Source of the DNA: a virus
Taxonomy: Duplodnaviria; Heunggongvirae; Uroviricota; Caudoviricetes
DNA length: 33,642 bases
Reading direction: 5' to 3' (one strand)
Virus record (IMG/VR): IMGVR_UViG_2880412407_000012
Positions 9,001-12,000 of this stretch are shown here, piece after piece. The position numbers were made by a program. Numbering within the stretch: position 1 is the stretch's first letter; each line of letters begins with the position of its first letter.

Positions 9001-12000
9001 TCGTCCGGGGCAGTGGTACACCACACCTGCAGGGCATGTTCTACGTGTTAGCCTGGTTGACCGTGAATGTCAGAAGGTGATTTGTGAACCGCTGGGCCGT
9101 AGTTACCGCGTCAGTATGCCGCTTATAGCCTTTCGCTCCGGAAAAAACATGAAGCATCTCGGAGGTGCTGCATGAGTATGGAGCTGATGGTTAAAGCGAT
9201 GAAAATTCGAGTGGGAAATCCATTGCGAAAACTGGTTCTGATTAAGCTGGCTGATAATGCCAGCGATCAGGGCGAGTGCTGGCCCAGCTATCAGCATATC
9301 GCTGATCAGTGCGAGATTAGCAAACGTTCTGTGATGAATCATATTGCGGCCCTCTGTGAGTCCGGGCTGGTAAAAAAGTCACCCGGAAAGGTGAAAAAGG
9401 TAACTCAAGTAATATCTATCTTCTTCATCTTGATGGTGCAGGAGATTCACTAGGGGGTAGTGCAAATAATTCACTATCTGGTGCAGCAAATTCACCAGGT
9501 AGTGCAGGAGTTGCACCAGGGGGTAGTGCAGGAGATTCACCCAGAACCAGTCACTCTTTTGAACCAGTCAAAGAACCAGTCAATGAACCAATAGCTGTTG
9601 GTGCATCAGTTGATGAGTCCGTGCGAGTTCGTTCAAACCGACCGGAATACTCTCCGGAGTTTGAGCAGGCATGGCTGGCATATCCCAAACGTGCTGGTGG
9701 CAATTCAAAATCTGCAGCCTTCAAAGCCTGGAAAGCCCGTTTGAATGAGGGAGTAAACCCCGAAACCATGCTGGAAGGTGTGAAACGCTACGCGGGCTGG
9801 GTATCTGCGATGGGTAACAGCGGCACACAATTTGTGAAACAGGCTGTCACGTTCTTTGGTCCGGATCGTCATTTCGAAGAATCCTGGGAAGTTCCTGCGG
9901 TATCTGCAGCCAGACGCGAGGACCCGTACTTCAAAGCCAGTTACGACAACGTGGACTACAGCCAGATCCCGGCAGGATTCAGGGGGTGATCATGAGTCTT
10001 TTGAATGAAGTTCAGAAATTCATTGAAGCCCATCCGGGCTGTACTTCCGGAGACATTGCGGATGCTTTTGCAGGTTACTCACGACAGCGCGTTCTGCAGT
10101 CAGCAAGCAAGTTACGTCAGAGTGGGCGTGTGGCTCACCGTTGTGAAGGAGATACACGCAGACATTTCCCGCGCCTGACTGAGAGAGCGCAGGAGCCGGA
10201 ACCACAACCAGTTCGTGAAACCAGACCTGTGCGCAATTTCTATGTCGGCACTAACGATCCCCGTGTGATTTTGTGCCTGACCCGCCAGGCTGAAGAACTG
10301 GAGTCCAGGGGCTTATACCGTCGTGCTGCAACGGTGTGGATGGCGGCATTCCGTGAAAGCCACTCCCAGCCAGAACGAAACAATTTTCTGGCACGTCGTG
10401 AGCGGTGCTTACGGAAAAGCAGCAAGCGCGCTGCATCGGGTGAAGAGTGGTATCTGTCAGGGAATTTCGTGGGGGCTTAATGAGTAATAAATATTGCCAG
10501 GCGCTGGTGGAACTGCGGAACAAACCAGCCCATGAACTGAAGGAAGTGGGCGATCAGTGGCGCACGCCGGACAACATTTTCTGGGGAATTAACACCCTGT
10601 TTGGCCCGTTTGTTCTGGATCTGTTCACTGACGGTGATAACGCCAAATGTGCTGCGTATTACACGGCGGAAGACAACGCGCTGGCGCATGACTGGTCAGA
10701 ACGTCTTGCGGAGCTTAAAGGGGCTGCCTTTGGTAATCCCCCATACAGCCGCGCCAGTCAGCATGAGGGGCAATACATCACCGGCATGCGTTACATCATG
10801 AAACATGCCAGTGCCATGCGTGATAAGGGGGGGCGCTATGTTTTCCTGATCAAAGCTGCCACCAGCGAAGTGTGGTGGCCGGAAGATGCGGACCATATTG
10901 CTTTTATTCGAGGGCGTATTGGTTTTGAACTGCCTGCCTGGTTTATCCCGAAAGACGAGAAGCAGGTACCGACAGGCGCTTTCTTCGCTGGTGCTATTGC
11001 TGTTTTCGACAAGACCTGGAAGGGACCGGCAATCAGCTACATCGGGCGCGATGAACTTGAGGCATGTGGTGAGGCCTTTCTGGCGCAGGTTCGCCAGCAG
11101 GCAGAAAAACTGGTCAGGGAGATGGCGGCATGACGACGTTAACTCAATGCCAGCAGCAGGTGCTGGATATGCTGATTTCTTATCAGAAAGAACGTGGCTT
11201 CCCGCCAACCAATCAGGAGGTGGCAACCATGCTGGGATACCGTTCAGTGAATGCAGCGGTGGAGCATCTTCGCGCACTGGAGAAAAAAGGCGTCATCACG
11301 ATAAAGCGTGGTGTGGCCCGGGGGATCACGCTTCATACCGCAGTGAAGGACGACGACAGCGAAGCGGTCGGGATTATCCGCTCACTGCTTGCCGGTGAGG
11401 AAAACGCAAGGCTGCGTGCAACTCACTGGTTACATGAGAGAGGCCTGAAAGTATGAAGCTGATCCTGCCTTTCCCGCCCAGCGTGAACACGTACTGGCGA
11501 CACCCCAACAAAGGGGCATTTGCTGGTAAGAGCCTGATAAGCGCGGCGGGGCGAAAATTTCAGAGCGCGGCGTGTGCAGCAATAGTTGAGCAGTTACGTC
11601 GTCTGCCAAAACCAACGTCGGCACCTGCTTCAGTGGAGATCGTGTTGTTTCCTCCTGATAACAGGATCCGCGATCTGGACAACTATAACAAGGCACTGTT
11701 TGACGCCCTGACACACGCGGGTGTGTGGGAAGACGACAGCCAGGTGAAAAGAATGCTGGTGGAGTGGGGACCGGTTATCCCGGAAGGGAAGGTCGAGATC
11801 ACTATCAGTAAGTACGAGAAAACGGCGGGTGCAGCCGCCTGATTAAGAGGAGAAACGAAGTATGAATAATCTGATGGTCATTGATGGTATTGAAGTTCGT
11901 CGTGATGCTTATGGGCGTTACAGCCTGAACGATCTGCATCGCGCAGCAGTAGCATCTGGTGCAAATGCCAGAACCAAGGAGCCAGGAAAGTTTCTTTCCA

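Follow-up and report, generated by a model that had tools for sequence, protein, structure and literature searches.

A replication initiator gene that reads as two open reading frames (ORFs) in IMG/VR record IMGVR_UViG_2880412407_000012, a 33,642-nucleotide (nt) caudoviral sequence referred to here in its whole length as the window, raises the question of whether the gene was inactivated by mutation or misread in a run of adenines. The initial annotation of this DNA allowed either an inactivating mutation or a homopolymer error, and comparison with public genomes settles the choice in favour of a mutation. Because the run of six adenines (A6) is reproducible in 8 complete genomes and the exact product of the split gene is found on 71 contigs, A6 is judged very probably to be a real, clonally inherited mutation of the Escherichia coli O121 lineage that inactivates the initiator of a decayed SfV/ST64B-type lambdoid prophage. 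The frameshift itself matters little, and the one point worth follow-up is a constant 27-nt block of DNA within the same gene.

The initiator gene and its one-base deletion

The two frames described in the initial annotation are both present. The N-terminal frame begins with an ATG at 9172 and stops at a TAG (9451-9453) after 93 amino acids (aa), with a tail ending ...VKKSPGKVKKVTQVISIFFILMVQEIH, and a second frame is open from 9360, directly after a TGA at 9357-9359, as far as a TGA at 9987-9989. The A6 run lies at 9372-9377, as had been stated, and one added A fuses the two frames into a protein of 272 aa, close to the earlier estimate of about 273. The last 24 residues of the 93-aa product (SPGKVKKVTQVISIFFILMVQEIH) have an out-of-frame look and read into the first of the repeats, or iterons, that the gene contains. 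Alignment with intact homologs locates a 1-base-pair (bp) deletion in a run of seven adenines (A7), the sole frame-affecting difference from E. coli C4 and phage SfV being A6 in the window and A7 in both of these. The lesion falls in codons 68-70, and the frame is lost at residue 70, at the start of the wing of a winged-helix domain. Intact homologs do not share the two-ORF layout: 58 of 60 complete genomes, sampled at even steps down the ranking, carry one more base, the exceptions being the window's own genome and that of E. coli KSC64. The frameshift is already known at the level of database annotation, where RefSeq describes C6W74_RS07215 in NZ_CP027454.1 as 'helix-turn-helix domain-containing protein, frameshifted'.

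The identification of the gene as a replication initiator is supported by homology. The repaired protein is 100% identical over 272 aa to SfV orf39 ('replication protein'), shows 100% identity to Stx2c-phage homologs and 88% to ST64B sb42, and aligns along its entire length with phrog_270 'replication initiation protein' (1.7e-88), the PHROGs descriptions matched being 'replication initiation protein' and 'replication initiation O-like'. The family is large, with 5428 relatives at E <=1e-5. A Pfam scan (E up to 0.01) returned HTH_36 at 1.8e-11 together with DnaD_N (below cut-off), B-block_TFIIIC and HTH_20, and nothing else. In an AlphaFold model built on 26 homologs, residues 1-88 adopt a winged helix (block-mean predicted local distance difference test score, pLDDT, of 68-90) whose wing strands span 67-73 and 79-85, the stretch 91-157 is a disordered linker (pLDDT <50), and residues 160-225 form a helical C-terminal domain. 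Foldseek matched the N-terminal domain to generic winged-helix proteins, including the DnaD N-terminal domain, all at E >0.001, and gave no informative match for the C-terminal domain, which is modelled at a pLDDT of 55-77; a sequence search for relatives of solved structure returned nothing with E <0.1.

The intact protein is very probably the initiator of an SfV/ST64B-type lambdoid prophage and consists of three parts, in which the N-terminal winged helix is predicted to bind five palindromic iterons inside its own linker-coding region and the C-terminal helical domain may recruit a helicase system of the DnaB/DnaC type. With one A lost from A7, translation enters the wrong frame where the wing begins and runs on to the stop at 9453. 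Since the shift occurs at residue 70, the 93-aa product retains the helices but has neither wing, linker nor C-terminal domain, which makes the gene a pseudogene; initiator function would be expected to be lost with such a fragment. The lesion is an ordinary pseudogenizing event in a prophage replication initiator gene.

The allele has a defined distribution. The window's 818 bases at this locus are 100% identical in 8 complete E. coli chromosomes, 3 of which are labelled O121 or O121:H19, the other 5 being isolates without a serotype in the output. Among 884 complete genomes bearing the 71-nt segment around the run, the A6 version of this 71-mer is exact in 8, and A7 is the reading in about 875 further complete genomes that contain this run. 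NCBI, ENA and Logan together have the exact 93-aa product on 71 contigs, compared with at least 1000 for the intact 272-aa protein. Five loci (L013-L017) were fetched from the look-up of this product. Two of them (L014 and L016) match the window at 100% identity across 6.3 kb, the gene of L017 is identical, and L015 (AP024478.1) is identical except for an IS3-family insertion at ~9577, within the GAACCAGTCA repeats that follow the iterons. With this insertion, L015 has taken a second hit at the origin, in addition to the A6 allele. The remaining locus, L013, is 3.8% diverged, yet carries A6 and two linked single-nucleotide polymorphisms (SNPs) adjoining the run, as in the window. All A6 loci from the product look-up carry these two SNPs (gene columns 252 and 261), a pattern that fits a single origin followed by recombination. 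The repaired gene of L013 has 4 amino-acid changes among 12 nucleotide differences, compared with 0 among 11 for intact alleles (small numbers), and 2 of the 4 fall at columns invariant in 26 homologs (alignment A3); these substitutions, few as they are, lean towards relaxed selection.

Under the hypothesis of a sequencing or assembly error, the real genome would have A7 and the gene would be intact. Such an error is suggested by a change of one base within a homopolymer and by E. coli KSC64 (locus L005), where A6 is accompanied by a G5-to-G4 deletion in the same gene, a combination typical of long-read error. KSC64 has a different SNP background, RefSeq also marks its gene as frameshifted, and its double deletion is likely to be either a long-read homopolymer or assembly error or an independent decay event. 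A third allele, A8, encodes a 74-aa product (...VKKSHPER) on 21 contigs and is present in loci L018-L022, which represent several backgrounds; one of these, L022, also has a second homopolymer change, again as read error would predict. For the window, an error of this kind is nonetheless highly improbable: 8 complete genomes deposited by several submitters agree on A6, the 71 contigs with the exact product come from three sources, the linked SNPs mark a haplotype and not a random error, and the same run is A7 in about 875 other complete genomes.

The existence of A6, A7 and A8 alleles in public assemblies could also be taken to mean that the run is a contingency tract, a phase-variable switch that turns the prophage's ability to replicate on and off. 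Nothing points to switching inside the clone, since the 8 complete genomes that carry the window's 818-nt sequence all have A6, and the exact 73-mer of A8 occurs in 0 of 5426 complete genomes, A8 being confined to draft and Logan assemblies. The tract is also not conserved. In a set of 80 loci assembled without regard to the 27-nt block, with one genome for each species and N-terminal peptide motifs as the sole criterion (its members include Pseudomonas, Shewanella, Aeromonas, Marinomonas, Xenorhabdus, Proteus, Providencia, Erwinia, Rahnella and Cardiobacteriaceae), just 8 of these diverged homologs have an A run >=6 at this position. A 7-nt tract is short for a contingency locus. A switch is thus the sort of explanation to which almost no credence can be given. 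Some A8 alleles may be artefacts, and A8 was treated with caution as evidence for a mutational hot spot.

Decay of the initiator gene is not rare. Disrupted copies are present in 3 of the 80 species-representative loci, two with frameshifts inside the iteron array and one with nonsense mutations; the disrupted homologs are L159 (Pseudomonas bharatica), L186 (Erwinia tracheiphila) and L195 (Ca. Phlomobacter).

Several points weigh against the interpretation of A6 as a true null mutation of an initiator. The A6 call rests on assemblies, and the KSC64 allele, which looks like a homopolymer error, shows that this site is open to errors of that kind. The searched literature contained no experimental test of initiator or origin function for the family. 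Finally, the deletion created, in phase, the most slippery -1 heptamer of E. coli, so that some full-length protein must be made.

Possible ribosomal frameshifting at the deletion

The deletion converts GTA AAA AAA GTC into GTA AAA AAG TCA and thereby places the heptamer A_AAA_AAG in phase with the zero frame, such that a -1 slip would restore the wild-type protein exactly (...VKK-VTRKG...). This heptamer is the shift site of dnaX and is far more shift-prone in E. coli than A_AAA_AAA (PMC5009743). The locus therefore resembles the programmed -1 sites of dnaX and IS3-family elements in having an in-phase A_AAA_AAG and a long open -1 frame. It differs from them in that the heptamer exists solely through the deletion and has no downstream stimulatory structure, upstream Shine-Dalgarno (SD)-like element or conserved two-frame layout. 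The fold z-score for 9350-9450 is -1.15 relative to shuffles, with only a 5-6-bp hairpin abutting the heptamer, and no SD-like (GGAGG-like) sequence was found upstream of it. Rfam matched no family at the site, the best hit being a microRNA model at E 0.061. A dnaX-like frameshift element, or another RNA family, was rejected on the grounds that there was no Rfam match and that the fold was no better than shuffles. The IS600 frameshift motif in the same window is A_AAA_AAA followed by G, a different heptamer, and was not used as a positive control. Programmed -1 frameshifting at the A6 run is unlikely.

A less demanding possibility is that the indel is leaky, or a 'savior', and that slippage on A_AAA_AAG yields enough wild-type initiator to be useful, leaving the gene down-tuned and not dead. 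The phase of the heptamer and the exactness of the restored protein speak for this, as does the persistence of the A6 haplotype in a second, 3.8% diverged background (L013). Stimulator-free heptamers in E. coli, however, shift at 2-10 times a background of 0.055% (PMC4066793), and the flanks of this one are those of the intact gene, never selected for frameshifting. In view of this range, the unselected flanks and the missing stimulators, full-length protein is expected to amount to at most a few tenths of a percent (roughly <=0.5%). The A7, single-ORF state of the homologs, the L013 substitutions at invariant residues, the insertion sequence (IS) in the origin of a sibling locus and the inability of the prophage to form particles in any case also argue against a retained function, and a usefully leaky gene is considered very unlikely. 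The preferred interpretation remains inactivation of the initiator.

Iterons and a constant block inside the coding region

The five iterons and three GAACCAGTCA repeats noted in the initial annotation are present within the coding region. The iterons start at 9436, 9460, 9481, 9502 and 9526, with a spacing of 24/21/21/24 nt, or about two helical turns, and the GAACCAGTCA repeats start at 9544, 9561 and 9573. The motif GTGCA-N5-TKCAC has 6 matches in the 33.6-kb window, all within the array and with one palindromic copy counted on both strands, compared with 0.26 expected; 0 of 100 shuffles reach 6. For GAACCAGTCA, 3 copies are observed against 0.10 expected in the window, and 0 of 100 shuffles reach 3. 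Tandem Repeats Finder and a repeat finder report the same arrays.

Comparison among homologs bears on what these repeats do. Iteron copy number varies in frame, with 8 units in phage cdtI against 5 in the window, and among homologs of 242-302 aa several differ in length by 22 residues, the equivalent of three iteron units. Homologs with other N-terminal domains have different palindromic repeats at the same gene position and spacing, examples being CCTAGTGA in Vibrio D67, GGGGCAGGAGCTGCCCC in Stx2a_F403, CCCCTATGCCAT in Klebsiella ST15-VIM1phi2.1 and CCCTGTGCC in Pectobacterium ZF40, with several further iteron types among IMG/VR contigs. In the natural chimeras P0106, P0113 and P0116, a foreign N-terminus is accompanied by its own linker type and joined to an SfV-type C-terminus. 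The C-terminal domain and the downstream partner gene vary independently among relatives; the partners of relatives with the same N-terminal type are lambda-P-like, a DnaB-like helicase, Toprim, DnaC-like plus DnaB-like, or none, as in the window. Because repeat type follows the type of N-terminal domain across homologs, the interpretation of the repeats as iterons is well supported by comparative sequence evidence. GC content near the iterons reaches minima of 0.35-0.375 at 9380-9439 and 0.40 at 9560-9599, with no strongly AT-rich stretch that would suggest an unwinding region. No promoters were found within or around the initiator gene. A terminator-like hairpin (TCACCTTTCCGGGTGA) lies on the minus strand at 9379-9394 and is followed by a T run complementary to the A run; the count of terminator-like hairpin sites in the region is at chance level.

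Directly after the iterons lies the 27-nt block AGAACCAGTCACTCTTTTGAACCAGTC, which encodes the peptide RTSHSFEPV and holds two of the three GAACCAGTCA copies. Its consensus is AGAAYCAGTMACTCTYYTGAAYCAGTC, and both of its GAAYCAGTC repeats tolerate the same C/T position. In a first comparison of seven homologs picked solely by protein similarity, none of 160 same-amino-acid codon pairs differed in the DNA encoding RTSHSFEPV, compared with 333 of 576 (58%) in the N-terminal block that is conserved in these genes. The exact 27-mer occurs in at least 120 IMG/VR contigs, where it follows at least 12 N-terminal types and several iteron sequences and precedes several unrelated C-terminal domains. In the set of 80 loci picked by N-terminal motifs, the block is found with <=3 mismatches in 68 and is exact in 16, and its codon phase is constant except in two frameshifted copies. 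It occupies the same place throughout, directly after the iterons whatever their sequence and directly before the C-terminal domain whatever its type, and occurs in prophages of Escherichia, Salmonella, Klebsiella, Pectobacterium, Proteus, Xenorhabdus, Aeromonas, Vibrio, Shewanella, Marinomonas, Pseudomonas and others.

Codon usage was counted in 66 distinct genes from many gammaproteobacterial genera, with GC contents of 36-61%. Third codon positions of the block are almost invariant in these genes: its Arg is AGA in 63 of 63 (against 10 of 66 for an invariant Arg that these genes encode in their N-terminal block), its Ser is AGT in 65 of 65 and its Glu is GAA in 65 of 65. AGA and AGT are retained even in high-GC Pseudomonas. 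The variation that does occur alters the amino acid (T/I, H/N, F/S/L and P/S), which is the reverse of the pattern predicted by constraint on a peptide, and the block lies in a linker predicted to be disordered. Frozen synonymous sites, amino-acid-changing variation and location in a disordered linker together point to selection on nucleic acid and therefore indicate that the block is maintained at the level of DNA or RNA and not as a peptide.

What the block does can be proposed with some reserve. It may be an undescribed constant core of the replication origin of this family, serving as a host-factor, unwinding or helicase-loading site common to many initiator specificities, which is the preferred proposal, though a tentative one. 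A conserved recombination linker at a module junction is a weaker alternative. The 27-nt sequence was not found in the searched literature, though a description elsewhere is possible. If the block were a constant origin element, it would offer a direct handle on DNA opening or host-helicase recruitment by a very common family of prophage initiators.

The decayed prophage and related systems

Features of the initiator gene and of its immediate neighbours are collected in Table 1. In NZ_CP027454.1, the window corresponds to the interval from the prophage integrase gene to the start of prfC, with the prophage inserted between yjjG and prfC. IS600 lies at 21130-22286, and 26068-27245 is occupied by an IS3-family element that abuts two truncated genes, that of the small terminase subunit (25674-26054) and that of the tail tip (27307-28002). 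Between these two genes all head and tail genes are missing, and several more genes are incomplete. The prophage is decayed and no longer able to make particles, and the initiator deletion is one of several degradative events within it. Other parts of the prophage include a gene for a CHAT-domain protein and a neighbouring hypothetical gene just after the integrase (2293-3483), a pair that could be a cargo or defence module, as well as transfer RNA genes for Ile and Arg at 17752-17984 and, at the right end (30321-32322), an NleG-family effector gene and two DUF1076 genes.

Table 1. Features at the initiator locus, numbered by window position
Feature	Position	Strand	Remarks
Small upstream ORF, 74 aa	8951..9175	+	Stop overlaps initiator ATG (ATGA)
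Zero-frame ORF of mutant initiator gene	9172..9453	+	93 aa; residues 1-69 native, predicted winged-helix helices, Pfam HTH_36
A6 run	9372..9377	+	Site of 1-bp deletion relative to A7 of intact homologs
A_AAA_AAG heptamer	9372..9378	+	Made by the deletion; in phase with zero frame (GTA AAA AAG)
Initiator continuation, -1 frame	9378..9989	+	Predicted wing (to ~9425), repeat-bearing disordered linker and C-terminal helical domain; stop 9987-9989
Five-iteron array	9436..9540	.	Each a 15-bp imperfect palindrome, GTGCA-N5-TKCAC
Constant 27-nt element AGAACCAGTCACTCTTTTGAACCAGTC	9543..9569	.	Two direct GAAYCAGTC repeats 17 nt apart; encodes RTSHSFEPV
Third GAACCAGTCA copy	9573..9582	.	SfV-type specific; outside the constant block
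122-aa ORF, GTG start	9621..9989	+	Spans C-terminal domain; listed as a separate gene by gene callers in frameshifted genomes
PerC-family gene (yfdN-like)	9986..10480	+	Start overlaps initiator stop (GTGA at 9986-9989)

The small upstream ORF and the initiator are probably translationally coupled. Translation of the mutant stops 533 nt before the normal initiator stop, and coupling to the PerC-like gene downstream is therefore probably lost; Rho-dependent polarity on that gene is possible. The origin DNA itself, comprising the iterons and the 27-nt block, is intact. In 7 of the 8 complete A6 genomes there is no second copy of this N-terminal segment, and this intact origin is thus left without its cognate initiator. 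An initiator-less prophage should not amplify in situ on SOS induction. The iterons of the prophage could also titrate an initiator brought in by a phage that shares their specificity, given that ectopic copies of the origin reportedly arrest phage lambda (PMC4488673). The frameshift also documents one more decay step in a cargo-carrying cryptic prophage, with NleG-type effectors, of Shiga-toxin E. coli (STEC) O121. The searched literature held nothing relevant on 'initiator-solo' replication modules or on O121:H19 prophages.

The closest known relatives are SfV orf39 and ST64B sb42, together with genes of mEp460, cdtI and the Stx2c phages, which share the iteron type and the 27-nt block with the window. 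Modules of the SfV/ST64B type also have the same neighbours, with the small ORF upstream and the PerC-like, Dam, LexA-like and RusA genes downstream. The window departs from SfV orf39 in having A6 for A7 and hence two ORFs.

A more distant likeness is found in CPS-53 of E. coli K-12 (L023), where yfdN and the last 31 codons of yfdO (REDPYFKASYDNVDYSQIPAGFRG) are 97% identical to the window at ~9914-10480. In the remainder of K-12 yfdO, the C-terminal domain is unrelated and is preceded by repeats of its own (CCGTCAAAATCTGAC-like), and the suggestion that yfdO is the same gene in truncated form was rejected, given that only these 31 codons and yfdN are common to both. The same 31-codon tail is also found on otherwise unrelated initiators of other phages (H237-H239); it is either a mosaic joint or a short functional tail.

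The comparison with lambda O and its origin, drawn in the initial annotation, holds for architecture and not for sequence family. Shared with lambda O are an N-terminal DNA-binding domain, dyad-symmetric repeats in the linker-coding region and a C-terminal domain of the kind paired with a helicase-loading partner, whereas the Pfam scan at E up to 0.01 gave HTH_36 and no match to a lambda O family. The iteron arrays of lambda and of Stx phages have been described (PMC7466680). Unlike lambda, the module in the window has no loader or helicase gene following the initiator, and no clearly AT-rich segment flanks its iterons (minimum GC 0.35). To our knowledge, the constant 27-nt block that follows the iterons has no equivalent in ori-lambda. 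By analogy, the initiator would work in the manner of lambda O while standing outside that family by sequence.

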